From Candidatus Omnitrophota bacterium (GTDB lineage Bacteria; Omnitrophota; Gorgyraeia; JAHJTE01), in the NCBI GenBank assembly GCA_018830005.1, contig JAHJTE010000001.1, forward strand, positions 193,332 to 257,331: a stretch of 64,000 nucleotides of DNA, given 5' to 3'. This document shows, one piece after another, positions 33,403 to 61,624 of the stretch; position 1 is the first letter of the stretch, and the number at the start of each line of letters is the position of its first letter. The translations under genes and the position numbers were made by a program. The notes under the pieces were generated by a model, which did no database searches, was not told the DNA's origin, and was given only the letters and a program-made list of their open reading frames with translations.

Positions 33403-34737
33403 CTAATTGGCTCGCGGGCAAGATAATCTTTTTATTATTTTAAACTTATCTTTTAATGCAGGAGATTTATAATGATAATATGTGGAAAAGATATCCGGGT
33501 ATTTAATGATAAGCCCTTTCATATCTTTTGTATTTATTAGAAGAGGGCTTGAATCCGGGATTGCGGCCTCAGAAAATCTCAATATTTTTTTATAATAATT
33601 ATAAATCTGTGTATTCGGTAATGGGCATAAGAGGTAAAGTTGCAATTTTATTTTCATAGATTGCAGGTAGGCTATATACGTAATAGTATCCAGGAAATCA
33701 TTTTTGCTTTCAAAAGGGAATCCGTAAATAAAACTTGTACGTACTTCTTTAAAGTATTTTTTTGAAAGTAGTAAAATTCTTGTTGCCTCTTCTATTGTGA
33801 ATCTTTTTTTGATCTTTTTAAGTATAACATTTGAGCCAGATTCAATTCCGTAAGCAATTGCGCCGAAGTTATTCCTGGATAGATCTTTTATTATTTTTTC
33901 ACTCATAAAGTTGATTCTTCCATAGCAGCGGAATTCTATTTTCCTTTTGAATCTCATCTGCCCAGAAAAACTCAAAAAATCATATAGCCTTGATTTATCT
34001 GATAAGAATGTGTCATCTCGAAGATATAATATCTTCGGGCAATTTTTCTGTTTGGATAGATATAAAATTTCGTCTTTAACTATGTTTAGGTTACGTTTTT
34101 CATGTTGCTTAAAATATTCTGGGATACAACAGAAACTACATCTAAAAGGACATCCCTGCCCAGTTAATATCATAATTTTCTTATAAGATTTAAGATTTAT
34201 ATTTTTGTATGCCTCAATAAAGCTATCAGACATAATGTGAGAATGCGTCCTTTTTGGGGTAAATATGACAGAGGGGCCTAATCTAAAGCCGATTCCTTTT
34301 ACTGATAAGTAATTTTTGTTGTGTTTAATTACTTTTAATAATTCCGGTAAGGTTTCTGTACCATCGCCAATAACGATAATATCTATGCAAGGGAAATTAT
34401 CTAGTATTTTTCCTGCCACTAGGCTTGGCCCAATGCCACCTAATATTATTATTTTTTCAGGGGTCTCTTTTTTTATAATCTGGACAATCTCTATAACATA
34501 AGGCAACATATACGAAAAACAGCTTATAGCGATAATATCCGCCGCATTTTTAAAAAAAGAAGCCATATCTTTCAGTGTGTGTTTTTTTCTTGGTTTAAAG
34601 AGTTGGTAATCGCGGAAGTCAACAGTAAAATTATTCTTTGAAAGGGATGCTATCAAGGAAAGACAGCCTAAGGGAAGACTGAGGTGTGCATCTATGCCGT
34701 CAATAAAATTTATTAATGTGATATCTTTATTACTCAT
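33403..34737 (-). CDS. B12-binding-domain radical SAM protein
   Basis: N-terminal cobalamin-binding-like Rossmann region; rSAM cluster 'GCPFRCSFC'. Confidence 0.7.
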   Translation of the reverse strand: MSNKDITLINFIDGIDAHLSLPLGCLSLIASLSKNNFTVDFRDYQLFKPRKKHTLKDMASFFKNAADIIAISCFSYMLPYVIEIVQIIKKETPEKIIILGGIGPSLVAGKILDNFPCIDIIVIGDGTETLPELLKVIKHNKNYLSVKGIGFRLGPSVIFTPKRTHSHIMSDSFIEAYKNINLKSYKKIMILTGQGCPFRCSFCCIPEYFKQHEKRNLNIVKDEILYLSKQKNCPKILYLRDDTFLSDKSRLYDFLSFSGQMRFKRKIEFRCYGRINFMSEKIIKDLSRNNFGAIAYGIESGSNVILKKIKKRFTIEEATRILLLSKKYFKEVRTSFIYGFPFESKNDFLDTITYIAYLQSMKIKLQLYLLCPLPNTQIYNYYKKILRFSEAAIPDSSPLLINTKDMKGLIIKYPDIFSTYYHYKSPALKDKFKIIKRLSCPRAN

Positions 34738-36373: not shown

Positions 36374-37456
36374 GTGAAGCCTCATCTCATAAAGACCAAA
36401 GAAAAAGACAATTATATCCAGCAGCTTGAAGCAAAGCTCCTACCCCGCGGCCGTCCGCTTGCCGGGCAGATTGATGTTACATACCGCTGTAATCTAGCCT
36501 GCCAACATTGTTTTATTGTCCCTGAAGAAAACACTGAGGAACTTAAATTTAGCCAAATAATATCTATTATAGATCAGCTCTATGAGGCAGGCTGCCTTTT
36601 TCTTTACTTTAGCGGAGGAGAACCTTTTTTAAGAGAAGATTTTTTGGATATCTATACTTATGCCAGAAACAAAGGCTTTTTAGTCAGCATATTCACAAAC
36701 GGTACTCTTATAAGCGAGGAGATTCTAGATTACTTAGTTAAACTTCCTCCCTATTCTATCGAGATTACATTAAACGGAATAACCCAAGATGTGTATGAAC
36801 AAATAACCCAAGTTAAAGGTTCTTTTTCAAAAGTGATGAAGGCAATAGAGTTGATTAAAGATAAGAATCTGCCTCTTGTTCTTAAATGTAATGGCATGAA
36901 GATAAATTACGATCAGATTTTGAAGATAGAAGAGTTCTCACAAGATTTATTAGGCAAAAAATACTTCCGCTGTAACCTTTCACTTGATCCTGCAATGGAT
37001 GGTTCAAAGAGGCCGTGTGCTCTTAGGCTTAGTCCTGAAGAGACATTAAATATAGTGCATTCTGATGAGGATATGTTTTCACTCTGCCGAGAAGAATTCC
37101 TGCATCACAAAGATAATTCACGCTTAAAAGATGGCTATCTATTTCCTTGCGGCTTGAGTTATTTTAATATTGACGCTTACGGTAAGATGAGACTTTGTTT
37201 ATTTATCAGAGAGGCCTACAGCGACTTGAAGAAAGAAAAATTCTTAAGAGGCTTTGCAAGAATTTATGAAAATCTTTCCGGACTTAAATTCAAGACTAAC
37301 AGCAAATGTCGAAATTGCAATATAAGTTATCTCTGTCGGCAGTGTCCGGGCAGGGCCTTAGCAGAGAATGTTGATATGGAGGCTCCGGTTGAGTTTTTCT
37401 GCGAACTTGCGCATAAAGAGGCGCAGAGGATGGAAGAGGTTTTAGTTAAAAAGTAA
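36374..37456 (+). CDS. Radical SAM/SPASM-domain peptide-modifying enzyme #1 (GTG start)
   Basis: rSAM 'CNLACQHC' (CX3CX2C); 'FSGGEP'; C-terminal SPASM-like 'CGLSYFNIDAYGKMRLC…CRNCNISYLCRQCP'. Confidence 0.8.
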   Translation: MKPHLIKTKEKDNYIQQLEAKLLPRGRPLAGQIDVTYRCNLACQHCFIVPEENTEELKFSQIISIIDQLYEAGCLFLYFSGGEPFLREDFLDIYTYARNKGFLVSIFTNGTLISEEILDYLVKLPPYSIEITLNGITQDVYEQITQVKGSFSKVMKAIELIKDKNLPLVLKCNGMKINYDQILKIEEFSQDLLGKKYFRCNLSLDPAMDGSKRPCALRLSPEETLNIVHSDEDMFSLCREEFLHHKDNSRLKDGYLFPCGLSYFNIDAYGKMRLCLFIREAYSDLKKEKFLRGFARIYENLSGLKFKTNSKCRNCNISYLCRQCPGRALAENVDMEAPVEFFCELAHKEAQRMEEVLVKK

Positions 37457-37479
37457 AAAATTTAAAGGGAGGTGAACAA

Positions 37480-38007
37480 ATGCTTAAGTTAGATGAAGTT
37501 TATGTAAAAGAGCAAGATTCCTGGGTAAGCAGACATATTTTGGATGAGGTAGTGATTATGCCTTTATGTAGAAGCGCTGATGACATGCAGTATATCTATT
37601 CAATTTCCAATGAGACTGGTTCAAGGATTTGGCAGCTTCTGGATGGTGATAATTCGACCTGGGATATCCAGGAGACAATAAAGTCAGAGTATCAAGGTCA
37701 GTTCGAGGTAATAGAGCGAGAAGTGTTGGGATTCTTGAAAGATCTTTCTGAGGCAGGGCTTATTCGCAAGGCCAGAATTAAACCGAAAACCGAAAACCTA
37801 AACCCGAAACCCGAGATAAAAAAGAAACCCTACAAGAGCCCAGAGATTGCCAAGGTAAAGTTACAGCCTGAGCAGGCAGTCTTAAGTTGCTGTACAATCA
37901 ACGGCGGTTATAAAGGAACCACTGTAAATAGATGCGCTGGTCTATGTCCAATTGATGCTTCATGCAACGCATTATCGGATCAATCCCGTGATGCGCTTGC
38001 CACTTAA
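37480..38007 (+). CDS. PqqD/RRE-like domain protein with Lys/Pro-rich linker and Cys-rich C-terminal tail
   Basis: N-terminal PqqD-like 'ISNETGSRIWQLLDGDNSTWDIQETI…EVLGFLKDLSEAGLI'; tail 'AVLSCCTINGGYKGTTVNRCAGLCPIDASCNAL' (5 Cys in 30 aa); SD 'AAAGGGAGGTG'. Confidence 0.65.
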   Translation: MLKLDEVYVKEQDSWVSRHILDEVVIMPLCRSADDMQYIYSISNETGSRIWQLLDGDNSTWDIQETIKSEYQGQFEVIEREVLGFLKDLSEAGLIRKARIKPKTENLNPKPEIKKKPYKSPEIAKVKLQPEQAVLSCCTINGGYKGTTVNRCAGLCPIDASCNALSDQSRDALAT

Positions 38008-38175
38008 ATAGTGCAACTTGATTATACATGTCTATCCGCTGTAGGTACAGATCAATACAGATTAATCCGCCTAGATCAATAAAGAGCTCTTACATCGCCT
38101 TCCTCATCCTAGCATCTATCTGTCGTTGATATAGAATGAGGTTACGGCAGATAGAGACTAATCAGTGAAAGAAAC

Positions 38176-39285
38176 ATGATAAACCAAGGTGATTACGATA
38201 AATTTCAAGCAAGATTAATCAAGAAGGCAAGGAACAAGGCCTTTCCTCTTAAGGCAATGTTTGAACTTACCTATAGGTGTAACCTTAAATGCCGACACTG
38301 CTATGTGTGCGATGGCGAGAATAGAAAAGAATTACAAACCCAGGAGGTCTTTTCTATTCTTGATCAGTTGGCAGAGGCAGGATGTCTAAATTTAGGTTTT
38401 ACAGGAGGAGAGCCTTTCCTGCGAAAGGATATATTTGATATTTTAAGATATGCTAAGAATAAGGGATTTAATACCGTACTTTTGACCAATGCGACTTTGA
38501 TTGAAGAAGCTGATGCAGACAGGTTAAAAGAGTTGGGTCTAAATAAGATTGATGTATCTTTTCATACTAGGAAGCAAGAGGTTTTTGATTGGTTTACTCA
38601 AAGGCCTGGTACATATAAAAGAGTCTCAGAGGCAGTCAGGCTCTTAAGAAAAAAAGGCATTGATGTTTTTCTTAAAACGACTGCAATGACTATAAATAAG
38701 GATGAGATTTTAGCCTTGAGGCATCTTGCAGTAGAGAAATTTGGCGCACATTTTCGCTGGAGTTCGATAATAACTCCAGACCTAGAGGCTAATAAGGAGA
38801 ATTTGAGGTTTCGTTTAACAGCAGAGGATGTTAATTGTCTAGAGAAGCAGATTAGAGATGATAGTGTAATAGAATTTGAAAAACTAGACACCTTGGAAAA
38901 AATAAATAGAAAGTCAGCGAAAAGGCAAAGGCCTATTAGAAAGATAAATCATAACCAGCTGTTTCATTGTGGTGCAGGCAAAACAGAGGTTGTAATAGAC
39001 CCCTATGGCCAGATGAGATTATGTCTGGATATACCATTCCCAAAATACGATATTTTAAAGAGTAATTTCTCCCAAAGCTGGAAGATGTTAACTGATTTTG
39101 TAAGAGATACAGCTGGCGGGTCTAGTTATCAATGTCAAGACTGTGAACTTATTCAATATTGTAAGTCTTGTCCTGCGTATGCATGGCTTGAGTGCGGTGA
39201 CATCAGTGCTTGCCCGCCATATTTTAGAGAGCTGGCGCGTCTGGCAAAGATGGAATCCGAAACAGAGGATATAAAGATTGCATGA
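38176..39285 (+). CDS. Radical SAM/SPASM-domain enzyme #2
   Basis: 'CNLKCRHC'; 'FTGGEP'; SPASM-like 'CGAGKTEVVIDPYGQMRLC…CQDCELIQYCKSCP'. Confidence 0.8.
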   Translation: MINQGDYDKFQARLIKKARNKAFPLKAMFELTYRCNLKCRHCYVCDGENRKELQTQEVFSILDQLAEAGCLNLGFTGGEPFLRKDIFDILRYAKNKGFNTVLLTNATLIEEADADRLKELGLNKIDVSFHTRKQEVFDWFTQRPGTYKRVSEAVRLLRKKGIDVFLKTTAMTINKDEILALRHLAVEKFGAHFRWSSIITPDLEANKENLRFRLTAEDVNCLEKQIRDDSVIEFEKLDTLEKINRKSAKRQRPIRKINHNQLFHCGAGKTEVVIDPYGQMRLCLDIPFPKYDILKSNFSQSWKMLTDFVRDTAGGSSYQCQDCELIQYCKSCPAYAWLECGDISACPPYFRELARLAKMESETEDIKIA

Positions 39286-40193
39286 GGAAAGAACTTAGAT
39301 TAGAAATTGCCGGGATTGGATTTTTATTTCGTTATAATAATTGTCAGATTAAAGAAGGCAGATATAGTCCAGCATACCTTGAGGATTTTATTAAACCGGG
39401 TAATAATAGTGATTTCATTATTGATCTTGACGTGGGATCTCTTCCTGCAATTCCTAGGGGGAGGCTGTTGTTTGAATCAAAGGAGAATTGGCGTTCCTTT
39501 GCGCATAACGGAAGTTTCCTAATCGAGACTTACTATGGTAAGTCAGAGATAACCAGGGTTTGTGTAATAAATAAAGATCTAAGTAAGGCAAAGGTATATA
39601 TCTCACCCTGGACAGACGAATTTGATAAAAAGAAAAGACTTAAAAACAATCCTCCCAAGAACTGGTCACTGGAGACATTTTTTTCTGTTTTAGGCCAGCT
39701 TATTTTAATCAACCTATTACATAAATATCAGGGGCTTCTTTTGCATGCCTGTGGTGTAGTTGTTGATGGTGCGGGATTAGTTTTTCCCGGGATATCAGGC
39801 GCAGGCAAGACGACTCTGACAAGGTTATGGCAGAAGAGGGGTGGCCTTGGCCTATTAAGCGATGATCGGGTAATTATTCGAAAGATAAATAAAGAATATT
39901 TTGTTTCTGGAAGCCCTTGGCCAGGCGAGGCCAGGATTGCCTCTGGTAAATCAGCGCCGCTTAGTAAAATCCTGTTTCTTTCCAAGGCCAATCAAAATAA
40001 ACTCAAAGCCCTAGGAAAAAGAGAAAGTCTATATCTGCTTATGAGGCAGTGTTTTCCTCCTATATGGGATAGACAGGCGATTGATTTTTTTCTTAAGTTT
40101 TGCGCAAGTCTAGTCGAAGATGTCCCCTGTTTTTCATTTGGTTTTGTTCCGGATGAAAGCGCGCTAGATTTTATTTTAAAAAACCACTCATGA
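39282..40193 (+). CDS. HPr kinase C-terminal-domain-like (HprK-related) P-loop protein #1
   Basis: 'LLLHACGVVVDGAGLVFPGISGAGKTTL' and 'LLSDDRVII' resemble HprK/P catalytic core; ATGA overlap with upstream rSAM. Confidence 0.65.
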   Translation: MRKELRLEIAGIGFLFRYNNCQIKEGRYSPAYLEDFIKPGNNSDFIIDLDVGSLPAIPRGRLLFESKENWRSFAHNGSFLIETYYGKSEITRVCVINKDLSKAKVYISPWTDEFDKKKRLKNNPPKNWSLETFFSVLGQLILINLLHKYQGLLLHACGVVVDGAGLVFPGISGAGKTTLTRLWQKRGGLGLLSDDRVIIRKINKEYFVSGSPWPGEARIASGKSAPLSKILFLSKANQNKLKALGKRESLYLLMRQCFPPIWDRQAIDFFLKFCASLVEDVPCFSFGFVPDESALDFILKNHS

Positions 40194-41293
40194 TTAAAGA
40201 GTTAAGATTTAGGAAAGAATTTACAGAAAGGCTGGAGCGAAAGCGCGATAAGATGGATTTTCCCCGCAATGTAATTTTTGAGATTACACATCAATGCAAT
40301 CTGCGTTGTCGGCATTGCTATGTAGTGCCAGATTCCAGAAAAAAAGAATTAACGACTTCGCAGGTTAAATCAGTTTTTAAGCAATTAGTTGATGTAGGTT
40401 GTCTTCATCTGACCTTAACTGGTGGTGAGCCTTTAGTGCGGCCGGATATCATTTCCTTGATTGACTATGCCCGCAGGCTAGGGCTTTTTATCCATCTTTT
40501 TACCAATGCCACCCTTATAAATCTTGAGATTGCTGATAAATTAGGAGAGCTTAGCCTTACATCCTTAGAGATATCTTTTCACAGTCTTAAGCCTAAACGT
40601 TTTGATTCCTTTACTAGAGTGGAAGGTTCTTTTGATTCGGTGATGAAGGCAATCAGGCTTGTTAAAGAGAGAAAAGAAAGCATTGCCTTAAAGATAAACA
40701 TAACCAAGGCAAACCTTGATGAGATTGATGATTTCAAAGAGTTTGCGAATGATTTAGACGCGGTCATTGAATGGGGAACTATTCTTAGACCAAGGAATGA
40801 TGGTTCACAGGATAATCTATCTTTACGTCTTGAGCCAGAAGAGGCATTAAAGCTAGGCTATATGCTTGGTCTTGAATCTATTCTTGATGAGCCAATACAT
40901 AATAATAAAGAATGTCATCCTCCAGAAAATAAACTCACCAAGCCAAATAGAAATAGGATAGAGAGCGAGTTATTTCGTTGTGGGATCGGCAGTGAAGGTT
41001 TAGTTATTGACCCCTACGGAGAATTAAAGCCTTGTCTTGTGCTTGGCCTTTTAGGCTATTCTATTTTTGATAGCAGTCTAAAGCAGGCATGGATAAATTT
41101 AAGAGCTGATTTGAATTCAATGAAACCGACAGCTGATTATAAATGTCTTGATTGTAATCTAGGGCATTATTGTTCATCTTGTCCAGCAAGAGCGAAACTT
41201 GAATGTAATGATATGAACTCATGTCCTGATTATTATCGTCGGCTGGCAGAATTAAGGTGTCAAAATAATGGCTATAAGAATTCAAGAATATAA
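40190..41293 (+). CDS. Radical SAM/SPASM-domain enzyme #3
   Basis: 'CNLRCRHC'; 'LTGGEP'; 'CGIGSEGLVIDPYGELKPC…CLDCNLGHYCSSCP'. Confidence 0.8.
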   Translation: MIKELRFRKEFTERLERKRDKMDFPRNVIFEITHQCNLRCRHCYVVPDSRKKELTTSQVKSVFKQLVDVGCLHLTLTGGEPLVRPDIISLIDYARRLGLFIHLFTNATLINLEIADKLGELSLTSLEISFHSLKPKRFDSFTRVEGSFDSVMKAIRLVKERKESIALKINITKANLDEIDDFKEFANDLDAVIEWGTILRPRNDGSQDNLSLRLEPEEALKLGYMLGLESILDEPIHNNKECHPPENKLTKPNRNRIESELFRCGIGSEGLVIDPYGELKPCLVLGLLGYSIFDSSLKQAWINLRADLNSMKPTADYKCLDCNLGHYCSSCPARAKLECNDMNSCPDYYRRLAELRCQNNGYKNSRI

Positions 41294-42389
41294 GGACTTT
41301 AGCTTGAGGCTTCATGATAAAGGTTCAAGAAAGCCGATTCTGGGACAATTTGAGCTCACCCATAACTGCAATCTTGCTTGTCAGCATTGTTATGTTGTAA
41401 ATGAACCCCAAAGGCAGGAACTTTCTTACAGTGAGCTTTGCCGTATCTTTGATGAAGTTTATGAACAAGGATGTTTCTGGCTCTGTTTTACTGGAGGCGA
41501 GCCCCTGTTGCGGAAAGATTTTCTTGATATTTACTCATATGCCTACAAAAAAGGATTTCTTATTAGTATCTTTACTAATGCGACACTTTTTAATGAGAAT
41601 ATAGCAGGACACCTTAAGGATTTTCCGCCCTTTTGCATTGAGGTAACCTTGAATGGCATTACTAAAAAAACATACGAATTAATTAGCCAAAGGCCGGGTT
41701 CTTTTGAGCTAGCAATGCGCGGCATTGAACTTATCCGAAAGTTTAAGCTCCCCTTAAAGTTAAAATGCCAGATAATGACTTTAAATATAGATGAGATCGA
41801 TTTGATGCGTAAATTTTATGATAAGATGAACATGGCTTTTCTTTGCAGTCTGATAATTAACCCACGCTTAGACGGTTCGACTCAGACCACTTCTTTGCGT
41901 TTGCCGATTGAGAAAATATTGGAACTTAGAAGGCAAAAAGAAGGACTAGCTGAATGTAGTGATTCTTCAAGGGATATCTTAGGTATGTTGATGCTTCCAG
42001 ATAAGAAAGAAGACATTTTTTTAGAGGAAGATTCATCATTTGACGGGGATAATGAATTAAACCTTGCCTCTGATGCGCTGTTTCGTTGTCCAGGAGGAAC
42101 ATGGGCATTCTATGTTAATCCTTATGGTGAACTTTGTTTTTGTAATTCGCTAAGAGAGCCAGCGTGGGATTTGCGCAAGAATTCATTCAAGCAAGGTTTT
42201 TATGAATTTTTTCCAAAGATTCGCTCAGAGAAGTTTAAAACCGATTCTAAATGCCGAGATTGCGATATCAAGTCAGACTGCCTTAGTTGTCCGGCAAGGG
42301 CTTATTTAGAGACAGGTGATAGAGAGGCCCCTTTGCCCTATTATTGTGAGTTGGCTCAAAAAAACAGGAAGAAAGAAATCAGGACTTAA
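41268..42389 (+). CDS. Radical SAM/SPASM-domain enzyme #4
   Basis: 'CNLACQHC'; 'FTGGEP'; 'CPGGTWAFYVNPYGELCFC…CRDCDIKSDCLSCP'. Confidence 0.8.
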   Translation: MAIRIQEYKDFSLRLHDKGSRKPILGQFELTHNCNLACQHCYVVNEPQRQELSYSELCRIFDEVYEQGCFWLCFTGGEPLLRKDFLDIYSYAYKKGFLISIFTNATLFNENIAGHLKDFPPFCIEVTLNGITKKTYELISQRPGSFELAMRGIELIRKFKLPLKLKCQIMTLNIDEIDLMRKFYDKMNMAFLCSLIINPRLDGSTQTTSLRLPIEKILELRRQKEGLAECSDSSRDILGMLMLPDKKEDIFLEEDSSFDGDNELNLASDALFRCPGGTWAFYVNPYGELCFCNSLREPAWDLRKNSFKQGFYEFFPKIRSEKFKTDSKCRDCDIKSDCLSCPARAYLETGDREAPLPYYCELAQKNRKKEIRT

Positions 42390-42398
42390 ATTGTAATT

Positions 42399-44009
42399 AT
42401 GAATAGTAGGCGTTTACGTGTCGGCATAATATCACGAAAGAATTTAGGTTCATTAAACAGCCTAAGCTGTAGGGTGCTTTTTAAAAACGCCTTAAAGATC
42501 GTTGAGAGTAGATTCAATGCGTGCTGTTGCTTCCTGAATAGCTCTACTAACTCAAACAAGAAGGAGATAGCACTTAAGAAGCTTACCTCTTCTTGCGATG
42601 TGATTTTGGAATTAGCTCCAGGGCAAATGTTTGATATAAAGGCCAAATCAATACCTAGAGTCTTTTTTGCACTTGGTTTTATGTCAAATCCTTTCAATCT
42701 CATGGCTAGCTTTAACAGAAAACTCATGACAGCCAATTCCGTTCTTTTCTCATGCAAAGCGGATTTGGAAATGTTTAATAAAATATTTGGCAAGACAGGA
42801 CGCAGTATGGGCTATATTGTGCCTTTCCCTCTAGAAGTTAATGAATTCAAACCACAAAGTGAGCTTGAAAATAAACGCATGCGAGAAAGATTTGGTATTG
42901 GAGGAGATGTCTTTCTTATCTTGTATGCGGGAAGAATTAACGTGCAGAAGAATATACACACATTACTTAAGATATTTAGAGAGGCCATTAAGAGATTTCC
43001 GCAAACAAGACTTTGTATAGCCGGCGAAGAAGACAGGGGTGGCTTTGAAGAGTTTGGTATTAGTAATAATGGATATACCGGCTATATTAGGAGGAAATGC
43101 CTTGAATACGGGATTGCCGATAAAGTAATATTTACTGGAAAATTAAAAAGAGAAGACCTTATATCTTTATATTCAAGTGCTGATGTTTTCATGAATTGTA
43201 CTATCAGCCAGTATGAAAATTTTGGCTATTCCCAGGTTGAGGCTATGGCCTGCGGCACGCCGGTTATTTGTTCGCATTGGGGTGGATTGAAAGATACAGT
43301 TATTCATGGTAAGTGCGGTTATCATATGCCAACCATACTTAGCAATAACGGCGTAAAGGTTGACTGGCAAAGTGGCTTAAGGCAGTTGATAGGTCTCTTA
43401 GAAGATAAGGATAGACTCAAAGAAATGTCAAGACAGGCAAGAGAACACGCAAAGCTAAACTTCTCTTTCGATAGATTTGCTAAGATGTTAGAATTCGTAC
43501 TTTTAGATACAATGAAGCGCAATAATAAGAATAAAAAACACCACTATTTGCTAAAGATTAAAAAAGAAAATCCTCATTTTATGAATTTATTCATGGAGTA
43601 TCTGTATGTAAACCGTAAAAATTACAAGAAGGGGCCGGTCTGTGTGAATAGCCCCAAAAGCCTCTTCTTTAGGCGAAATTATAGTCACTATAAATCTTTT
43701 ATAAAAGCCTACAGTTCTCTATCTGGTTCTGAAATGCTTAAAAGAAATGGCTCCATACCCTACTTTCTACAGGATGTCAGACTTATGTATAAAGGGCAGC
43801 GCCTTTATATCCAAGATCCTCTCTGGCCAGCAAGATACAGATTAGAGGATTGGCAATTTAGAATTGCCTCAGTTATTGATGGCAATAGAAGCCTGGAGGA
43901 TATTAATTCTAATTTTATACACAGGGGTTTTAAAAAAAGGAGAGATTCGCTTAAGAGGTTCTATAAGCATCTTGCTGAAGAGGGCGTAGTATCATTTCTT
44001 AGTAATTAG
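42399..44009 (+). CDS. GT4-family (GT-B) glycosyltransferase with C-terminal PqqD/RRE-like domain
   Basis: GT4 C-domain 'FLILYAGRINVQKNIHTLL…CIAGEED…NFGYSQVEAMACGTPVICSHWGGL'; C-terminal ~70 aa 'RIASVIDGNRSLEDINSNF…SLKRFYKHLAEEGVVSFL' resembles PqqD. Confidence 0.6.
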   Translation: MNSRRLRVGIISRKNLGSLNSLSCRVLFKNALKIVESRFNACCCFLNSSTNSNKKEIALKKLTSSCDVILELAPGQMFDIKAKSIPRVFFALGFMSNPFNLMASFNRKLMTANSVLFSCKADLEMFNKIFGKTGRSMGYIVPFPLEVNEFKPQSELENKRMRERFGIGGDVFLILYAGRINVQKNIHTLLKIFREAIKRFPQTRLCIAGEEDRGGFEEFGISNNGYTGYIRRKCLEYGIADKVIFTGKLKREDLISLYSSADVFMNCTISQYENFGYSQVEAMACGTPVICSHWGGLKDTVIHGKCGYHMPTILSNNGVKVDWQSGLRQLIGLLEDKDRLKEMSRQAREHAKLNFSFDRFAKMLEFVLLDTMKRNNKNKKHHYLLKIKKENPHFMNLFMEYLYVNRKNYKKGPVCVNSPKSLFFRRNYSHYKSFIKAYSSLSGSEMLKRNGSIPYFLQDVRLMYKGQRLYIQDPLWPARYRLEDWQFRIASVIDGNRSLEDINSNFIHRGFKKRRDSLKRFYKHLAEEGVVSFLSN

Positions 44010-45155: not shown

Positions 45156-45290
45156 ATGATGAGAAAGGATTCCAAAAAAATTTCAAAGACAAGAAATGCT
45201 AAGGACAAATATGAGAAGCCAAAACTTTTCAAATACAGAATGGTAGATGTTGCCAGTGCTTTAGTAGCTGGACAGATAGAACCTTTATGA
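45156..45290 (+). CDS. Unannotated small ORF, 44 aa: MMRKDSKKISKTRNAKDKYEKPKLFKYRMVDVASALVAGQIEPL; candidate precursor peptide
   Basis: Not in the six-frame track (<60 aa). Strong SD 'AAAGGGGG' at 45145-45152; tandem ATGs at 45156 and 45159; lies in the 284-nt gap between rSAM #5 and the stand-alone PqqD gene; Lys-rich N-terminal half, hydrophobic small-residue C-terminal half. Confidence 0.45.
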   Translation: MMRKDSKKISKTRNAKDKYEKPKLFKYRMVDVASALVAGQIEPL

Positions 45291-45408
45291 ATAGAGCAGA
45301 TGTTTGCTTGATATCCTATGGCTTGAATTAGTTTTTCTAATGGGTAGATTATATATTTACTGAAGGAAAAATCTATCTGTTAACTAATAAATAAACTTGG
45401 AGGTAGAT

Positions 45409-45699
45409 ATGGCCTTAAGGGAAGGATGCAATCGTTTTAAAATCCAGAAGGATAAAATTGCCCACCGCTTAATTAATAATGAAGTGGTAATTTTGCATTT
45501 AGAGCGTGGTCTTTATTTCAGTCTTAATAAAACCGCTACTTTTATCTGGAAACTTATAGAGCAAGGCAGGGATTTAGGCCAGATGTCAGAGGCGTTCGCT
45601 AAAAGGTTTGAATGCAAAGAGGCAGAGGCAATAAAGGATGTCAATGTCTTAATAGGCGATTTAGAAAAAGAAGGACTCATAGATAAGATTAAGAAATAA
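45409..45699 (+). CDS. Stand-alone PqqD-family (RRE) protein; start at ATG 45409 with GGAGG at 45399-45403 (track ORF starts at an upstream TTG)
   Basis: 96 aa; 'INNEVVILHLERGLYFSLNKTATFIWKLIEQGRDLGQM…KDVNVLIGDLEKEGLI' typical PqqD. Confidence 0.75.
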   Translation: MALREGCNRFKIQKDKIAHRLINNEVVILHLERGLYFSLNKTATFIWKLIEQGRDLGQMSEAFAKRFECKEAEAIKDVNVLIGDLEKEGLIDKIKK

Positions 45700-45776: not shown

Positions 45777-46982
45777 ATGAATATTGCTATTATTGCTCAT
45801 TCCTATTTGCCTGATGTTGGTGGTAGCCAGGAAACAATCAGGGGATTAGCTAAAGAATTTTCAAAGCAAGCTCATGAAGTAATTATTTTGGTACTTACTC
45901 CTGGCCCAGGCGGAGAATTCAAGAATGCAACAGAAAACCATTTTTTTAGATTTAAGGCATTCGAGGTTATTGAGGGGATAGATGTTCATAGACTACGCGT
46001 TCCTTTTCTAGGAGTTCCCCGCATAGGAATAAAAGGACTGATTGACACCTTAAGACTCCTTGTTTTTTTACCGGGTGTATTAATAAAATCAGCCAAGATA
46101 ATAAAAGACAATAAGATTCAGATAATTAATGTCCATTATGCAGGCATAAATGCATTTTGTACTTGGCTGCTTTCCTACCCACTCTCCTTAAAATACATAG
46201 TTACATTGCAGGGTTTTAATGTGCAGGTACTCCCATTTTTAAAAGGTTTGAGAGGATTTATTATTCGTTTTGTTTTTAAGTCTATATTGCAGCGCGCCAG
46301 TTTTGTTACTGCCTGTTCTGAGTATCTACTTAATGATGCAAAAGAAAGAGTCCCCCAGATAAGAAATAAGTCTTGTGTTATCCCCAATGGCATAGATTTG
46401 GATGAGTTTAAGCATAACGGCCGAAGTTTAATAGATTATCCCTACATCCTTTGCCTGGGAAGACTGCATGCACCCTTTAAAGGTTTTGATATTGCCCTGC
46501 TTGCACTCAAGGATATCCTAGATTCAGGCCTTGATATAAATCTGGTTCTAGCCGGAGACGGGCCAGATAGCGCTGAATATAAAAAACTTGCAGAATCTTT
46601 AAGCATAGAGAAAAATGTGCATTTCTTTGGTCTGGCCAACCGCGTAGAGGCAGTATATTTTATTAAAAACTGCCAATTCTTTGTGATGCCTTCACGCGTT
46701 GAACCTCTAGGTATTGTAAACTTAGAGGCCATGGCCTGTTCTAAGGCAGTCATTGCCTCAAGAGTAGGCGGTATACCAGAGGTAGTTGAGCACGGTGTAA
46801 ATGGGTTATTAGTTGAGCCTGCGGATGTCAAGGTGCTTGCTAGAGCCATAAAAAGATTATTAGTTGATAAGGACTTAAGAGTTAAACTCGGCAGAAACGG
46901 CAGGCGCATGCTAGAGGCTGGAGAATTTTCTTGGCAGAGGCTATCTCGTAGATACCTAAAACTGTATAGAGAATTTTTATAA
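45777..46982 (+). CDS. GT4-family glycosyltransferase (paralog a)
   Basis: 'YLPDVGGSQE'; 'LGRLHAPFKGFDIALLAL…LVLAGDGP', 'FVMPSRVEPLGIVNLEAMACSKAVIASRVGGIPEVV'. Confidence 0.8.
   Translation: MNIAIIAHSYLPDVGGSQETIRGLAKEFSKQAHEVIILVLTPGPGGEFKNATENHFFRFKAFEVIEGIDVHRLRVPFLGVPRIGIKGLIDTLRLLVFLPGVLIKSAKIIKDNKIQIINVHYAGINAFCTWLLSYPLSLKYIVTLQGFNVQVLPFLKGLRGFIIRFVFKSILQRASFVTACSEYLLNDAKERVPQIRNKSCVIPNGIDLDEFKHNGRSLIDYPYILCLGRLHAPFKGFDIALLALKDILDSGLDINLVLAGDGPDSAEYKKLAESLSIEKNVHFFGLANRVEAVYFIKNCQFFVMPSRVEPLGIVNLEAMACSKAVIASRVGGIPEVVEHGVNGLLVEPADVKVLARAIKRLLVDKDLRVKLGRNGRRMLEAGEFSWQRLSRRYLKLYREFL
46268..46793 (+). repeat. Copy A of duplicated GT4 segments, >98% DNA identity with 48599-49124 at a constant 2331-bp offset; identical blocks 46268-46566 and 46668-46793 separated by diverged sequence
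   Basis: Direct comparison of both copies; only about 3 mismatches in the 299-bp block. Confidence 0.85.
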
Positions 46983-46985
46983 ATA

Positions 46986-48122
46986 ATGCAGAATAATTCC
47001 TTCGACTTTAATTTAGCTTCAAAGATAAAGAACAAAGAGGCAGGCATAAGAGATATACGCAATAGGAATGGAATATGTGAAGGCTTGCCTGCGGTTTTAA
47101 CCATCGTTGATACTACAAGATGTAATTTAGACTGCATAATGTGTGTAAGAAATAAAGGCTACTTACAAACTGCTTTAAGGTCTTTTAAGCGCTATAGTCG
47201 GCGTAGAGATGAGACTGTCATGAATTTTAATCTGTTTAAAAAAATAGCCAGCGAGATGTTTCCTCATATTAGCCGAGTTTGCTTAAGCGTAGCAGGGGAG
47301 CCTTTTATTAATCCAAATTTTCCTAGACAGCTAGAGCTAATTGAATCCTATAAGGTTTGGCTAGACCTCTTTACTAACGCTACTCTCATACCCAAGGATG
47401 AGCTTTTGAGGAGATTAGTTAATAGGCTATCGCGCATGGTAGTTTCTATTGATGGCGCCAGCAAGAAGACTTACGAGAGCATAAGAAAAGGAGCTAGATT
47501 CCAGGAGGTTATAGATAATATTAAGCGTCTTAATACAGAAAGAATGAAGATAGATAAAGAAATAAGGCCTAAGCTCGTCTTCTGGTTTGTATTGATGAGA
47601 AGGAATATCGAGGAATTGCCAGAATATGTGCGCTTAGCCCATAGCCTGGGGGCAGACGGGATAGGTGCGGCGCATGTTACTATATTCAAGAAAAGCTTAG
47701 AGAAAGAATCGTTGGTTTATCACAAACAGTTAGCCAACCGCTATTTAAAACAGGCAAGAGATTTAATTGACAAATTGGGCCTGGAGACTTTTGATTTTCC
47801 TCCTTTGTTTTCGCAGGTTCCTGTTTCGCAAGATAAAGTTGATACTCCAATGCCTAATTCGCCGTGCAAATTTCTCTGGAGAGAGGCGGTCATTGAATTA
47901 AATGGAGATGTTTATCCTTGTTGTGCTCCCGAGAAAACCGGTTTACTGATGGGAAATGTCAGCAAGCAATCTTTCAGAGAAATCTGGAGTGGTAAGCGCT
48001 ATCAGATATTAAGGGCAAGTTTTGAGGATGGCTATTTATATCCACCTTGCAAGAATTGTTATCAACGATTAAAAGATCGTACCTCAGATAACAGCGGTAT
48101 CTATTTTTTCGAAAACGTATAG
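46986..48122 (+). CDS. Radical SAM/SPASM-domain enzyme #6
   Basis: 'CNLDCIMC'; 'VAGEPF'; C-term 'CKFLWREAVIELNGDVYPCCAP…CKNCYQRL'. Confidence 0.75.
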   Translation: MQNNSFDFNLASKIKNKEAGIRDIRNRNGICEGLPAVLTIVDTTRCNLDCIMCVRNKGYLQTALRSFKRYSRRRDETVMNFNLFKKIASEMFPHISRVCLSVAGEPFINPNFPRQLELIESYKVWLDLFTNATLIPKDELLRRLVNRLSRMVVSIDGASKKTYESIRKGARFQEVIDNIKRLNTERMKIDKEIRPKLVFWFVLMRRNIEELPEYVRLAHSLGADGIGAAHVTIFKKSLEKESLVYHKQLANRYLKQARDLIDKLGLETFDFPPLFSQVPVSQDKVDTPMPNSPCKFLWREAVIELNGDVYPCCAPEKTGLLMGNVSKQSFREIWSGKRYQILRASFEDGYLYPPCKNCYQRLKDRTSDNSGIYFFENV

Positions 48123-48143
48123 TTAGGCCTTAAGAAAGTAATT

Positions 48144-49325
48144 ATGAATATAACAATTTTTCCTCATGCCTATTTGCCTAGCGTAGGGGGCGTAGAAGAG
48201 GTAGTCAGAAATCTAGCCAGAGAATTTAAGGCAAAAGGCCATCGTGTAGGACTAATAGTATTTGTTCCACTTAGAAGATTCAGGGCACGTGAGATTATTG
48301 AAGGAATAGAAGTTAGAAGATTCTATGTTCCCTTTGTAATATTGCCCTATAGAGTGAGCTGGCGAGCTTTTCTTGATGTAGTTGAAATGCTTGTTTGTTT
48401 GCCTCTTGCCCTGGTTAGAATAGCGCGCATACTCAAAGAAAATAATAGCCAAATAATACACATACATTATATTGGCGTAAATGCATTTTATATTTGGTTG
48501 CTTTCCTATTTTCTCTCCTTAAAATACATCGTAAGTTTGCACGGCTTTAATTTACAAGTAATACCTTTCCTGAAAGGCGCAAGCAGAGCTGTTCTTAATT
48601 TTGTTTTTAAGTCTATATTGCAGCGCGCCAGTTTTGTTACTGCCTGTTCTGAGTATCTACTTGATGATGCAAAAGAAAGAGTCCCCCAGATAAGAAATAA
48701 GTCTTGTGTTATCCCCAATGGCATAGATTTGGATGAGTTTAAGCATAACGGCCGCAGTTTAATAGATTATCCCTACATCCTTTGCCTGGGAAGACTGCAT
48801 GCACCCTTTAAAGGTTTTGATATTGCCCTGCTTGCACTCAAGGATATACTAGATTCAGGCCTTGATATAAATCTGGTTCTAGCCGGAGACGGGCCAGCCC
48901 GCACTTCTTATGAGAGATTGATAAGATTATTAAAGATAGAGAAAAATGTGCATTTATTTGGTTTGGCAAATAGAAAAGATGCAGTAAATTTAATCAGAAA
49001 CTGCCAATTCTTTGTGATGCCTTCACGCGTTGAACCTCTAGGTATTGTAAACTTAGAGGCCATGGCCTGTTCTAAGGCAGTCATTGCTTCCAGAGTAGGC
49101 GGTATACCAGAGGTAGTTGAGCATGGCCTAACCGGATTATTAGTTGAGTCATGCAGCGAGAAAGCACTGGCTGCAGCGATAAAGCGACTTATGGAAGATA
49201 AGAATTTAAGAATCAGACTTGGCAGAAACGGCAGGCTTAAGGCTGAGCAACGTGGATTTTCTTGGGAGTTTATAGCCGATAAACATCTGGAGATATCAAA
49301 AGGATTTTTGAATTATGAAGATTGA
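48144..49325 (+). CDS. GT4-family glycosyltransferase (paralog b; divergent N-terminal half, near-identical C-terminal half to paralog a)
   Basis: 'YLPSVGGVEEVV'; C-terminal half identical at protein level over 'FKSILQRASFVTACSEYLL…GIDLDEFKHNGRSLIDYPYILCLGRLHAPFKGFDIALLALKDILDSGLDINLVLAGDGP'. Confidence 0.8.
   Translation: MNITIFPHAYLPSVGGVEEVVRNLAREFKAKGHRVGLIVFVPLRRFRAREIIEGIEVRRFYVPFVILPYRVSWRAFLDVVEMLVCLPLALVRIARILKENNSQIIHIHYIGVNAFYIWLLSYFLSLKYIVSLHGFNLQVIPFLKGASRAVLNFVFKSILQRASFVTACSEYLLDDAKERVPQIRNKSCVIPNGIDLDEFKHNGRSLIDYPYILCLGRLHAPFKGFDIALLALKDILDSGLDINLVLAGDGPARTSYERLIRLLKIEKNVHLFGLANRKDAVNLIRNCQFFVMPSRVEPLGIVNLEAMACSKAVIASRVGGIPEVVEHGLTGLLVESCSEKALAAAIKRLMEDKNLRIRLGRNGRLKAEQRGFSWEFIADKHLEISKGFLNYED
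48599..49124 (+). repeat. Copy B of duplicated GT4 segments (see 46268-46793)
   Basis: Same as copy A; tandem duplication unit of 2331 bp comprising GT4 + rSAM. Confidence 0.85.
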
Positions 49326-50427
49326 CCCCTTTGATTATACAATAGGCTTAAAGATAAAAAATATAGAGGCGGCCTTAAGGGATAGGGAATTTCAAAATAG
49401 CACCTGTGAATCTTTCCCTGCATCTTTAACCATTGCAGATACTACAAGATGTAATCTAGACTGTATAATGTGTCATCACCATTTGGCCAAGACATATACA
49501 AAGTCTGCAAGCAATATTAATATGGATTTTAATCTATTTTCGAAGATTGCCAAAGAGACATTTCCCCATATTAACCTTGTTAGTTTAAGTGTATCTGGAG
49601 AACCTTTCATTAATCCAAATTTTTCTAAAGAGTTAGAGTTAATCGCTTTCCACAAGGTTAAGTTAGGTATTATTACTAACGCCACACTCATGCCAAAAGG
49701 CGATAGCCTAAGGAGACTTGTTAATAATCTCTCTAGTATAATTGTTTCTATTGATGCTGCTAGCAAGAAAACTTACGAGGCTATAAGAAAAGGCGCTAGA
49801 TTCCAACAGGTTATCGATAACGTCAAGCGGCTTAATAGGGCAAGACTAAAATTCAGTAAAAGTTTTAGACCCAAGCTTATCTTCTGGCTAGTTTTGATGA
49901 GGAAAAATATTGAAGAGTTATCAGAATATGTGCGCTTAGCTCATGCTCTTAAGGCAGACGGGATAGGACTGGTCCACATGTCAATACATCATGAGAAATT
50001 AAAAAAAGAATCATTGATTTACCACAAGCGATTGACGAATCGCTGCTTAAAGGCAGCAAGAAAGCTAATAGATAGTTTTGGCATTGAAGTCTATAATATT
50101 GCACCTTTGTTTTCTTTTGGTAGGACACCCATTAAAAAGAGCTATTATACTTTAAACAAGAGACCTTGTAAATTTCCTTGGCGGGAGGCATTTATTGAAG
50201 TAAATGGTGATGTTTATCCTTGTTGTGCTCCGGACAAAAGTGGTTTATTGATGGGTAATGTTAGAGAGCAGACGTTTAGACAGATTTGGAATGGCAGGCG
50301 CTATCGATTATTGCGAACCAGCTTTAAAAACGGCAATCTATTTGCTCCTTGCAAGAACTGTTACCAAAGATTAAAAGATTATACCTCAGATATCAGCGGT
50401 ATCTATTTCCCGCCGCCTATTGCATGA
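49315..50427 (+). CDS. Radical SAM/SPASM-domain enzyme #7 (paralog of #6, ~55-60% aa identity)
   Basis: Same 'TTRCNLDCIMC' block; 'VSGEPF'; 'CKFPWREAFIEVNGDVYPCCAP…CKNCYQRL'. Confidence 0.75.
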   Translation: MKIDPFDYTIGLKIKNIEAALRDREFQNSTCESFPASLTIADTTRCNLDCIMCHHHLAKTYTKSASNINMDFNLFSKIAKETFPHINLVSLSVSGEPFINPNFSKELELIAFHKVKLGIITNATLMPKGDSLRRLVNNLSSIIVSIDAASKKTYEAIRKGARFQQVIDNVKRLNRARLKFSKSFRPKLIFWLVLMRKNIEELSEYVRLAHALKADGIGLVHMSIHHEKLKKESLIYHKRLTNRCLKAARKLIDSFGIEVYNIAPLFSFGRTPIKKSYYTLNKRPCKFPWREAFIEVNGDVYPCCAPDKSGLLMGNVREQTFRQIWNGRRYRLLRTSFKNGNLFAPCKNCYQRLKDYTSDISGIYFPPPIA

Positions 50428-52206: not shown

Positions 52207-53127
52207 TTATAGCAATTTGCCTAGAAGCCTGGGGATTTCTCTAATCTGATCTAGGCTATAAGAAAGGGCATAGGATCTTGCCTGGTAGGCGAGTCGACAG
52301 AGATTCTGTATTTGGTGTTGGCGGATAATTATGTTTTTTTCCTCAGGAAGACTATTTACCTTATCATAGGCTAAAATAGTAAAACTTTCTTTTGTCTTCA
52401 ACTTTTTTAATTCAGGCGGCCGCAGGGGATTGTCAGATTGACAAATGAATAGTATTACGCCTAAGCATGCGCGTTCAGCCGGCTTAGCCGGGAAATACTC
52501 TTGTGCATAAAAAGAGGTAGCAATTTTTCTTCCTTCATTTAATGTAAGGAATTTTAGAGATTGTTTATCTAATTTCATTTTAAGAGGAAAGGAGAGTATT
52601 CTATCTTCGTGCAGGATAGCAAATTCATCTGAAAGAAAATTATAACCTTTATCTATAAGGGCTGCGGCTAAGGTGCTTTTGCCCATACCGGGACCGCCAC
52701 AGATAAGCAGGGCCTTATTCTTTTTAGATACTACTGCCGAATGTATTAAGGATATATTGTGATATGCCAATATTCGCCGTAAGGGCGAGATTATTGTTAA
52801 GTGCAGCAGGTTTTCTATTGTTAAACTGGAGGGGTAGAGCAGCTTGGCGTTGATTTTATTCTCTTTGGGATTGGCCTCAAGCGATATATTTTTTATCCAA
52901 CAATCAAGAGAAAAGTTCTCATCTTTTAGGCCAGCAACGTCAGAACGCCCATTTTTAAACGCCTTATTTTTAACAGAGAGATTTAGATCAATTTCTATAT
53001 ATTTGTTATAACTGCGGAATTTTGGAAATTTCAGTTCTTCGCAAAAGGCGTTAAACAGAGATTGGCAGTCAGACTTAAAATTTAATTTGATGTTATGTAG
53101 ATATATATTTTTTGAATAGGTTTGCAT
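52207..53127 (-). CDS. HprK-related P-loop kinase-like protein #2
   Basis: 'IHSAVVSKKNKALLICGGPGMGKSTLAAALIDKGYNFLSDEFAIL' parallels HprK/P C-domain; 306 aa. Confidence 0.6.
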   Translation of the reverse strand: MQTYSKNIYLHNIKLNFKSDCQSLFNAFCEELKFPKFRSYNKYIEIDLNLSVKNKAFKNGRSDVAGLKDENFSLDCWIKNISLEANPKENKINAKLLYPSSLTIENLLHLTIISPLRRILAYHNISLIHSAVVSKKNKALLICGGPGMGKSTLAAALIDKGYNFLSDEFAILHEDRILSFPLKMKLDKQSLKFLTLNEGRKIATSFYAQEYFPAKPAERACLGVILFICQSDNPLRPPELKKLKTKESFTILAYDKVNSLPEEKNIIIRQHQIQNLCRLAYQARSYALSYSLDQIREIPRLLGKLL

Positions 53128-53434
53128 AGCTTAAATTGGTAATTAATTTTAACTTTTTTAATTGCCGCAAGAGTGTTAAGTAATCAGCCCCTGCCTTTTT
53201 GTAGCTTGTTTTGTGTTTTTTCATTAGGCATTTTATAATTTTTTCCGGAGATTTTTTTAATAGAAGGCCTTCTAGTATATCAAGGGAGGATTTTGTAGTA
53301 AAATTAAGTGATTTTAGGATGTCGGCGAAAGAATATTTGCTTTCATCTATGACTACAAAGACAAATTCATTGCATAGTTTTGCCCAGACAATTTTTTCAT
53401 GTTTTAGCTCGTATCTCTTTTTTAGCTCGTCCAT
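53093..53434 (-). CDS. PqqD-family (RRE) protein
   Basis: 113 aa; 'IVWAKLCNEFVFVVIDESKYSFADILKSLNFTTKSSLDILEGLLLK…' PqqD-like; overlaps downstream kinase gene by 35 nt. Confidence 0.6.
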   Translation of the reverse strand: MDELKKRYELKHEKIVWAKLCNEFVFVVIDESKYSFADILKSLNFTTKSSLDILEGLLLKKSPEKIIKCLMKKHKTSYKKAGADYLTLLRQLKKLKLITNLSYANLFKKYIST

Positions 53435-61613: not shown

Positions 61614-61624
61614 GTTAAAAGTTT

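Follow-up and report, generated by a model that had tools for sequence, protein, structure and literature searches.

We analyzed a window of 64,000 nucleotides from a Candidatus Omnitrophota bacterium (assembly GCA_018830005.1, contig JAHJTE010000001.1, positions 193,332 to 257,331 of the forward strand), focusing on one gene at 37480..38007 (+ strand; window coordinates count from the first letter of the stretch) whose 175-amino-acid (aa) product appears to join a peptide-recognition domain to a precursor peptide. The gene runs from an ATG to a TAA. A strong Shine-Dalgarno sequence (GGGAGGTG, 37467-37474, + strand, read from the sequence) lies 5 nt upstream of the ATG, and radical S-adenosylmethionine (rSAM) genes flank it at 36374..37456 and 38176..39285, a setting that the original prediction had described correctly. 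The product is identical to GenBank MBU2540514.1, a “PqqD family protein” of a Candidatus Omnitrophota metagenome-assembled genome (MAG). No terminator-like site was found on the + strand between 38008 and 38175, and the 168-nt spacer before the second rSAM gene folds no better than its shuffles (z = -0.58). The spacer also holds an inverted repeat at 38121..38163 (12 bp with one G-U pair, loop of ~19 nt) without a T-tract.

In our best reading, the protein consists of four parts, all encoded on the + strand: i) a PqqD-type RiPP recognition element (RRE; RiPP, a peptide made by the ribosome and modified after translation) at residues 1-97 (37480..37770); ii) a variable basic linker at residues 98-113 (37771..37818); iii) a leader-like recognition motif, KKKPYKSPEIAKVKLQPEQAVLS, at residues 114-136 (37819..37887), in which YxxPxI is followed by KVK[ML]QPEQAVL; and iv) a core-like segment, CCTINGGYKGTTVNRCAGLCPIDASCNALSDQSRDALAT, at residues 137-175 (37888..38004).

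The assignment of the N-terminal ~100 aa to a PqqD leader-binding domain, made in the original prediction, was borne out by profile, structure and sequence comparisons. Pfam model PF05402 (PqqD) matched residues 44-95 with 44.7 bits against a cutoff of 23.4, and the protein's top NCBIfam matches were lasso-type PqqD chaperones, PqqD, ScmD and GeoRSP PqqD, all below their cutoffs. AlphaFold2 (AF2) modeled the domain at a predicted local distance difference test (pLDDT) score of ~90, with strands at 15-20, 23-28 and 38-43 and helices at 45-53, 60-70 and 75-91, which is the βββ-ααα winged-helix-like fold of RREs. When the model was compared with the PDB using Foldseek, TbiB1 (5v1v/5v1u) was the best match (target TM-score of 0.83, 29-32% identity) and 6jx3_B the next; the top matches were lasso B1 RREs that had been crystallised with leader peptides. 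A phmmer search of the PDB with the N-terminal domain likewise returned TbiB1 (E 8e-6), the second-best sequence match being 9x8z_B (E 2.7e-4), which is LppB (PMC13381572). In a 2025 RRE survey, 21% of PF05402 proteins exceeded the length of a discrete RRE without carrying any other annotation, and this portion was termed unexplored.

A search of 5.8 billion protein clusters yielded 52 clusters (90% identity) of fusion homologues, most of them 175-202 aa long, which came from independent metagenomes and kept the architecture continuous throughout; the few that carried names were Omnitrophica. On an alignment of 48 of these 52, column entropy was lowest in the leader motif (0.75 bits per column), followed by the RRE domain (1.08 bits), the tail (2.65 bits) and the linker, which varies in length (2.90 bits). 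The motif is near-invariant as KKKPYKxPEIAKVKMQPEQAVL[S/A/T]: P121 and E131-L135 do not change, and within YxxPxI (Y118, P121 and I123) the Tyr is kept in 47 and the Pro in all 48 homologues. The stretch described in the original prediction as a 40-aa Lys/Pro-rich linker does contain 10 Lys and 6 Pro within residues 97-136 (read from the sequence), but because column entropies differ along it, it divides into a true linker of ~16 aa and a leader-like motif of 23 aa.

The C-terminal tail (...AVLSCCTINGGYKGTTVNRCAGLCPIDASCNALSDQSRDALAT) contains the five Cys originally reported. Only C137, C138, K145, N150, C152, C156 and C162 are kept within it, all other positions exceeding 3 bits, and the C-terminal residue is Ser or Thr in 47 of 48 homologues (Ser in 38, Thr in nine and Phe in one). 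Across the fusion homologues, tails are 39-63 aa long with 5-6 Cys, whose order is conserved while the sequence and spacing between them are hypervariable. The pattern of a motif at 0.75 and a core at 2.65 bits per column is a leader/core signature. Two fusion paralogs in one related locus (L003; 13874..14422 and 14616..15155) extend it: their RRE, linker and leader are near-identical, while their cores of 43-45 aa are unrelated after “AVLSCC”. Judged from its sequences, this pair is a case of classic precursor diversification, and it points to cores being swapped, or diverging rapidly, while the leader in front of them stays the same.

In the AF2 model of the window protein, residues 111-130 have a pLDDT of 82-87 and include a DSSP-assigned β-strand at 122-127 (EIAKVK), with the linker at 57 and the core mostly at 35-55. 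The model of the most divergent homologue (P0046, 43% identical) has the corresponding strand at 123-127 and the core below 50; over both targets, the leader strand scored 82-87 and the linker 56-57. Because a DSSP strand needs a partner and all other strands lie in the RRE, the leader motif is predicted to dock on its own RRE, with residues 122-127 binding in cis. Leaders of lasso peptides and of linear polyphosphorylated peptides (LPP) bind lasso-B1-like RREs via [Y/W]xxPx[L/V/I] (PMC13381572; 2025 RRE survey). The core is predicted to be disordered (largely below 50-55 pLDDT in both AF2 targets). An invariant tail folded as a Zn-ribbon or Fe-S site, which the original prediction had named as the outcome that would contradict it, is the opposite of what emerged, i.e. 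a tail that is hypervariable and predicted to lack order. Sequence searches of the PDB for tail homologues returned nothing above noise, the matches being a ferredoxin (E 6.5) and a linker between zinc fingers, “KPYKCPE” (E 0.36).

The combination of PqqD and Cys-bearing tail is a conserved family, occurring in 52 clusters and, among 185,579 species-representative genomes, at six loci. Four of these six loci are labeled as Omnitrophota/Omnitrophica MAGs, one as “uncultured Planctomycetia” and one as “uncultured delta proteobacterium”. Among themselves, the fused RREs share 43% identity or more, compared with 29-33% to the discrete RREs encoded in the same clusters, a pattern that fits a single fusion which then spread.

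Relatives of the C-terminal module also exist as free peptides. A profile of the fused C-terminal modules retrieved 452 proteins at E<=0.01, and among the best 120 of these, 115 are no longer than 100 aa and carry the leader motif. These stand-alone peptides are 55-98 aa long (median 69) and share the leader KPKF[KRN]P[EV]ITRVKLNPEQAVL[AST]CxC, while their cores are hypervariable, contain 3-5 Cys and end in Ser (109/115) or Thr (6/115). The tail and leader motif of the fusion are thus homologous to stand-alone short peptides, and by the profile matches, the Omnitrophota peptides of this kind, which have the same leader, number more than 400. Neither the fusion tail nor four stand-alone relatives matched any NCBIfam or Pfam model, even at E<=10. 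The two leader versions differ consistently, with YKxPEIAKVKMQ in the fused form versus KFxPxITRVKLN in the split form.

The stand-alone peptides are encoded together with discrete PqqD proteins. L003 contains a stand-alone 93-aa PqqD followed by a 67-aa open reading frame (ORF), MPRKPKFRPRITRVKLNPEQAVLFCSCSTLG...GVIAS. The peptide locus of L005 comprises PqqD (94 aa), several rSAM genes, the peptide, two rSAM genes, an ATP-binding cassette (ABC) exporter and a protein in which a signal peptidase I (SpI)-like domain is fused to NTP_transf_5. In L006 the order is NTP_transf_5, PqqD (94 aa), SpI-like peptidase (145 aa), peptide, two rSAM genes, a ScmC-like gene, a glycosyltransferase (GT; 550 aa), an rSAM gene and an ABC exporter. 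We scanned the loci for PqqD and free peptides with hidden Markov models (HMMs) and Pfam over ±10 kb where the contig allowed (L010 spans only 4.1 kb). In the sequence scanned, the fusion-only loci (L001/2/8, L004, L007, L010 and L011) contained neither another PqqD nor a free peptide, while the split loci contained both, and L003/L009/L012 had one split pair alongside three fusions. No leader copy beyond the fusion gene turned up in the window, either by a six-frame motif search or with an HMM. Fused and split forms are therefore complementary across loci in a Rosetta-stone pattern, and the split form is the decisive evidence for reading the fusion protein as a precursor.

The fused and split systems also differ in other respects. 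Fused precursors have 5-6 Cys and a core that starts with “CC”, and they are accompanied by four rSAM genes in two paralog pairs; in free peptides there are 3-5 Cys and the core mostly starts with “CxC”, and they are accompanied by one rSAM of each pair. The number of rSAM enzymes may track the number of cross-links.

The four rSAM/SPASM enzymes of the window (all + strand) are encoded at 36374..37456 (rSAM1), 38176..39285 (rSAM2), 40190..41293 (rSAM3) and 41268..42389 (rSAM4). rSAM3 is a paralog of rSAM2 (38% identity) and rSAM4 of rSAM1 (40% identity), and split loci retain one rSAM from each of these pairs. rSAM1 matched Pfam Radical_SAM and has its CX3CX2C from residue 39 and SPASM-type Cys motifs; all four share CX3CX2C, Cx(n)Gx4C, Cx2Cx5Cx2C and one later Cys, the motif set of rSAM maturases with SPASM auxiliary clusters. 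Because CX3CX2C begins at residues 34-39, rSAM1-4 have no N-terminal RRE. The pairing of a PqqD with rSAM/SPASM enzymes that have no RRE is known classically from PqqD/PqqE. Alignments to the SPASM-type models NirJ2 and AhbD were nearly full-length, scoring 110-142 bits against cutoffs of 500. Each of the four has syntenic orthologs in L001, L003 and L011 (56-69% identity). Orthologs of rSAM1 occupy the same position in the fusion loci L001, L003, L007 and L011 (63-69%), and those of rSAM2 are 60-64% identical in L001, L003 and L007; L007 has orthologs of rSAM1, 2 and 4 without a clear counterpart of rSAM3.

Other rSAM genes lie nearby. A two-gene module of GT4 and rSAM/SPASM occurs in tandem duplicate at 45777..50427 (period of ~2.3 kb, 74-83% nucleotide identity); its two rSAM proteins are 61% identical, differ in type from rSAM1-4 and best match a tungsten-cofactor maturase model. 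A B12-binding rSAM at 33403..34737 (- strand) best matches ApyD, a model of the RiPP C-methyltransferase type (140 bits, below cutoff), and a B12-rSAM also adjoins the peptide in L005 and sits at the edge of L001.

Genes for a kinase, a peptidase, transferases and an exporter complete the cluster. At 39282..40193 (+) lies a homolog of HprK-like/ScmC-family P-loop kinases (GISGAGKTT ... LSDD), which scored 35 bits with HprK_rel_B and 29 bits with HprK_rel_A, both below cutoff; its syntenic homologs are annotated as PF27840 ScmC, and the L001 ortholog scored 29 bits with TIGR04249. A GT4 glycosyltransferase of 536 aa is encoded at 42399..44009 (+; Glycos_transf_1, 111.8 bits) and has a 550-aa counterpart in the split cluster L006 (11506-13158). 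The protein at 50349..52205 (+) combines an archaeal-type SpI-like domain (Peptidase_S24, 27 bits; TIGR02228, 38 bits, below cutoff) with NTP_transf_5 (PF14907, 137.7 bits), and is a candidate leader peptidase plus PsmN/LppN-like transferase. The same fusion is found in L004 and L005, and its two parts are separate genes in L006; with TIGR02228 (cutoff of 51.85), the L005 fusion (53.5 bits) and the stand-alone L006 peptidase (68.4 bits) are above cutoff. An MsbA-like ABC exporter without a peptidase domain follows at 53514..55286 (+; ABC_membrane and ABC_tran; TIGR02203 MsbA, 271 bits, below cutoff), and L001, L004, L005 and L006 each encode an ABC exporter as well.

A second protein with SpI-like, GNAT and NTP_transf_5 parts is encoded at 56095..58347 (+). 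Its Cys-rich N-terminus contains “CNAL”, which the original prediction had noticed in the fusion tail as well and had thought might be coincidence or might mark a shared site; the sharing is attributable to chance (three common four-mers versus 1.8 expected from shuffles, P(>=1) = 0.80). Box B of the SpI-like domains reads “GSCMHP” at 50349..52205 (residues ~52-135) and “SWCMFP” at 56095..58347 (residues ~82-167), versus “G[TIG]SM[YF]P” in L004, L005 and L006, while all SpI-like domains compared keep the archaeal-type box's His-Arg. The Cys-bearing domains could be a Cys-His peptidase variant or an inactive form.

Several further features of the neighborhood were noted. Polysaccharide export and chain-length genes (Wza-like; Wzz/GNVR plus AAA_31) flank the peptide cluster in the window (60567..63541) and in L005 (13911..15824), and PMT_2, Bac_transf and sulfotransferase genes occur in several related loci. 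A second HprK-like kinase is encoded at 52207..53127 (-; HprK_rel_A, 61 bits, below cutoff) next to a degenerate PqqD-like protein of 113 aa at 53093..53434 (-; PF05402, 15 bits; custom PqqD HMM, E 1e-5), and the pair resembles the NCBIfam “HPr-rel-A system”. Upstream of a discrete PqqD gene (45397..45699) is a 44-aa ORF, MMRKDSKKISKTRNAKDKYEKPKLFKYRMVDVASALVAGQIEPL, at 45156..45290 (+), which has a YxxPxL motif of the lasso/LPP type, no Cys and a strong Shine-Dalgarno sequence, a GGGGGG run just upstream. A search of 1.84 billion representative proteins gave no relatives of this ORF (E<=0.001), which leaves it as an orphan candidate for a second precursor. The GT at 42399..44009 has a C-terminal extension of ~170 aa whose length is conserved in L006 and which looks RRE-like by eye (“...VIDGNRSLEDINSNF...LAEEGVV”); as an RRE, however, it was detected neither by Pfam (E<=1) nor by the custom PqqD HMM.

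Among described systems, those closest to this cluster are the LPP systems and the paeninodin-type lasso systems. LPP clusters of Bacillota lie inside capsule loci and encode a discrete RRE (LppB), an HprK-like kinase (LppK), an NTP transferase (LppN), an MsbA-like pump and LppS, an SpI-like leader peptidase that is RRE-dependent (Popov et al., Nat Commun 2026, PMC13381572). Shared with the present system are the lasso-B1-like RRE, the [Y/W]xxPx[L/V/I] leader motif, the conserved N-terminus and variable C-terminus of the precursor, the HprK-like kinase, the archaeal-type SpI-like peptidase, the NTP transferase, the MsbA-like exporter and the polysaccharide-locus setting. All five components of the LPP core gene set are present in the window and related loci, the SpI and kinase matches lying below curated cutoffs in the window and above cutoff in L005 and L006. 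On the other hand, the LPP precursor motif is YxxPxVLxHQxIxFETxxS (PMC13381572), and only YxxPxI is shared here, the remainder being AKVKMQPEQAVL with KVKMQPEQAVL in place of ...VLxHQxIxFETxxS. The LPP RRE is discrete, whereas here precursor and RRE form a single chain and the SpI-like domain is fused to NTP_transf_5. Furthermore, LPP clusters are without rSAM enzymes, and the report on them mentions no such RRE-precursor fusions (PMC13381572); LPP, whose primary modification is the polyphosphorylation of a Ser in the core, lack a conserved Cys framework and any cyclising or cross-linking enzyme, whereas four conserved rSAM/SPASM genes are core members here.

In lasso systems, the HprK-family kinases PadeK and PsmK phosphorylate the C-terminal Ser of the precursor, whose phosphate is then hexosylated by way of PsmN (PMC6993621). 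With these paeninodin/pseudomycoidin-type systems the fusion shares a B1 RRE as best match, a YxxPxL-type motif and a conserved C-terminal Ser, but its cores are 39-63 aa long, Cys-rich and associated with rSAM enzymes. Neither a lasso macrolactam cyclase (asparagine-synthetase-like C) nor a B2 peptidase (transglutaminase-like cysteine peptidase) was seen among the annotated ORFs of the window at 29.4-64 kb or of L001-L006.

The SynChlorMet cassette consists of the same four component types (ScmC, the PqqD-like ScmD and the rSAM/SPASM proteins ScmE and ScmF), but the ScmD model describes a discrete protein of 84 aa. Scores with its models (TIGR04248-04251) were far below cutoff: 20.4 vs 100 for ScmD, 74-89 vs 400 for ScmE and 62-82 vs 400 for ScmF, while the ScmC model did not match 39282..40193 and gave 23.8 vs 125 for the kinase at 52207..53127. 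No paper on SynChlorMet was found in the searched literature, and we know of no precursor identified for it.

Sactipeptides and ranthipeptides, including SCIFF, likewise place rSAM/SPASM enzymes beside a Cys-bearing variable core and depend on an RRE. There, however, the maturase usually carries the RRE as its N-terminal domain and all links are made by a single rSAM, whereas here four rSAM enzymes are RRE-less and the substrate carries the RRE. The alternative raised in the original prediction, a SCIFF-like substrate, was not upheld: the tail matched none of the NCBIfam and Pfam models up to E = 10, the Cys number five rather than the six within 45 residues of SCIFF, and the leader is another one. 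NHLP and Nif11 leaders and the borosins (OphMA) resemble the fusion in having a protein-sized N-terminal part before a short modified core and in encoding part of the biosynthetic machinery in the substrate chain; NHLP and Nif11 leaders are not RREs, though, and borosins fuse a catalytic methyltransferase rather than a recognition adaptor. Full-text literature searches turned up no account of an RRE in one chain with the leader and core that belong to it, an absence that is no proof, and in the searched literature this peptide family, Omnitrophota RiPPs and the combination of HprK, rSAM and PqqD are undescribed.

Several lines of evidence were computed directly: i) the identity of the RRE; ii) the leader/core pattern; iii) the homology of the tail to free peptides; iv) the complementarity of fused and split forms; and v) the synteny with RRE-less rSAM enzymes. 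Of the features expected of a RiPP precursor, a conserved leader with a variable core, adjoining modification enzymes, a peptidase, an exporter and paralogs with different cores are found. We therefore consider it likely that the 175-aa product is a precursor of the RiPP type with its RRE built into the chain, its chemistry and cleavage site being what we infer. This retains the self-recognising precursor of the original prediction, given the hypervariable disordered tail, the free-peptide homologs, the fused/split complementarity and the core-swapped paralogs, and refines it to an RRE-linker-leader-core order.

A mechanism can be proposed on this basis. The leader (YxxPxI...KVK) would fold back and extend the sheet of the RRE by one β-strand, in the manner of lasso and LPP leaders on their discrete RREs, and the RRE:leader unit would serve as a docking platform for enzymes that lack an RRE of their own. 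The four rSAM/SPASM enzymes would then act on the Cys core, Cys-derived thioether cross-links being the likeliest product. By analogy with PadeK and PsmK, the HprK-like kinase may phosphorylate Ser/Thr, most probably the conserved C-terminal one, and NTP_transf_5 and the glycosyltransferases may extend the phosphate with sugars. The SpI-like domain would remove RRE and leader together, plausibly between the last two residues of AVL[S/A/T]C, where Val at -3 together with a small -1 residue is compatible with the type I signal peptidase rule. The MsbA-like ABC transporter would export the product of ~39 aa, and the RRE would be consumed one-for-one with the substrate.

Five points weigh against the precursor reading or parts of it: i) both SpI-like domains of the window carry Cys at the position of the Ser nucleophile, so their activity is uncertain; ii) the window also holds the discrete PqqD at 45397..45699, which would allow recognition in trans; iii) the placement of the leader in the β3/α3 cleft is drawn by analogy with TbiB1; iv) none of the rSAM enzymes reaches any curated NCBIfam cutoff, those of AlbA, StsB, PapB, SkfB and CcpM included; and v) in the one tested LPP member, LppK phosphorylates core Ser3 and not the C-terminus (PMC13381572).

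The most serious rival is that the fusion is a small protein that is modified yet never cleaved, keeping its RRE while the cross-linked and/or phospho-glycosylated tail functions in place, like a QhpC-type cross-linked subunit or a glycan primer or anchor. The location within a polysaccharide locus with Wza-/Wzz-like genes and many GTs, the Cys at the nucleophile position of both SpI-like domains and the lack of a peptidase domain in the exporter all accord with it, and the identity of the final LPP product is likewise not established (PMC13381572). We nevertheless regard it as improbable: in the split systems, the homologs are free peptides (55-98 aa) whose leader is short and of a typical kind, the stand-alone SpI-like peptidase of L006 is above the TIGR02228 cutoff and adjoins the peptide gene, and PEQAVL[AST] directly before the first Cys is invariant and looks like a processing site. 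LppS, moreover, is an RRE-dependent leader peptidase (PMC13381572). Quite unlikely, in our estimate, is a division of labor in which the fusion serves only the LPP-like enzymes (kinase, NTP transferase, GTs and peptidase) and the rSAM enzymes act on a sugar or on another peptide. LPP systems do function without any rSAM (PMC13381572), no window rSAM attains the cutoff of a peptide-maturase family, and the locus is rich in sugar-modifying genes; yet the unit rSAM / fusion / rSAM / ScmC / rSAM / rSAM is syntenic in all fusion loci examined, one rSAM per paralog pair is kept beside the peptide in split loci, and the sole invariant side chains of the core are those of Cys, the usual target of rSAM/SPASM enzymes. 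The PqqD/PqqE-like pairing noted above argues in the same direction.

Two further alternatives were considered. That the Cys tail serves a PqqD chaperone as a structural or metal-binding element (Zn, Fe-S or disulfide), with another small ORF as the true precursor, would agree with the conserved order of the five Cys and with the YxxPxL-bearing ORF at 45156..45290. It is very unlikely in the face of hypervariable sequence and spacing between the Cys, disorder predicted in two AF2 targets, homology to free peptides and paralogs that swap cores behind an identical leader; besides, the window has no other peptide with a fused-type leader, and the ORF at 45156..45290 has no relatives among the 1.84 billion representatives. 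An assembly or annotation artefact, i.e. a frameshift or read-through joining separate PqqD and peptide genes, can be set aside almost entirely, and nothing in its favor was found. The 52 clusters, which stem from assemblies of NCBI, JGI, ENA and Logan, preserve a single uninterrupted frame across linkers that differ in length and sequence, three fusion paralogs occur in one cluster, and the fused leader is consistently distinct from the split one. Because independent assemblies keep the continuous architecture, the fusion is not a chance ORF or a mis-fusion.

Taken as a whole, the precursor reading can be put as one model, to which we give somewhat better than even chances: a single-chain RRE-leader-core precursor whose RRE binds its leader in cis, recruits several RRE-less rSAM/SPASM enzymes, a kinase and a signal-peptidase-like protease and is discarded with the leader, and which together with its more than 400 split relatives would form a new class of Omnitrophota RiPPs that are Cys cross-linked, bear a phosphate or glycan on the C-terminal Ser/Thr and are linked to polysaccharide loci. 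In our best reading, the fused form derives from a far larger split system of the Omnitrophota, with a discrete PqqD and a 55-98 aa peptide, and is the minority version of it.

An RRE is generally regarded as an enzyme part or as a free adaptor with turnover. If the model is true, an RRE built into its substrate would act in cis and stoichiometrically and would be a natural test of RRE function, as well as a natural counterpart of the leader-enzyme fusions constructed in RiPP engineering. The fused/split complementarity also pairs a leader motif with its RRE independently of experiment. The family is also a possible evolutionary bridge connecting the accessory machinery of LPP and lasso systems, rSAM/SPASM chemistry and Haft's orphan SynChlorMet cassette. 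For the Omnitrophota, which to our knowledge have no cultured natural-product chemistry, the analysis exposes a large uncurated family of more than 450 precursor-peptide clusters.

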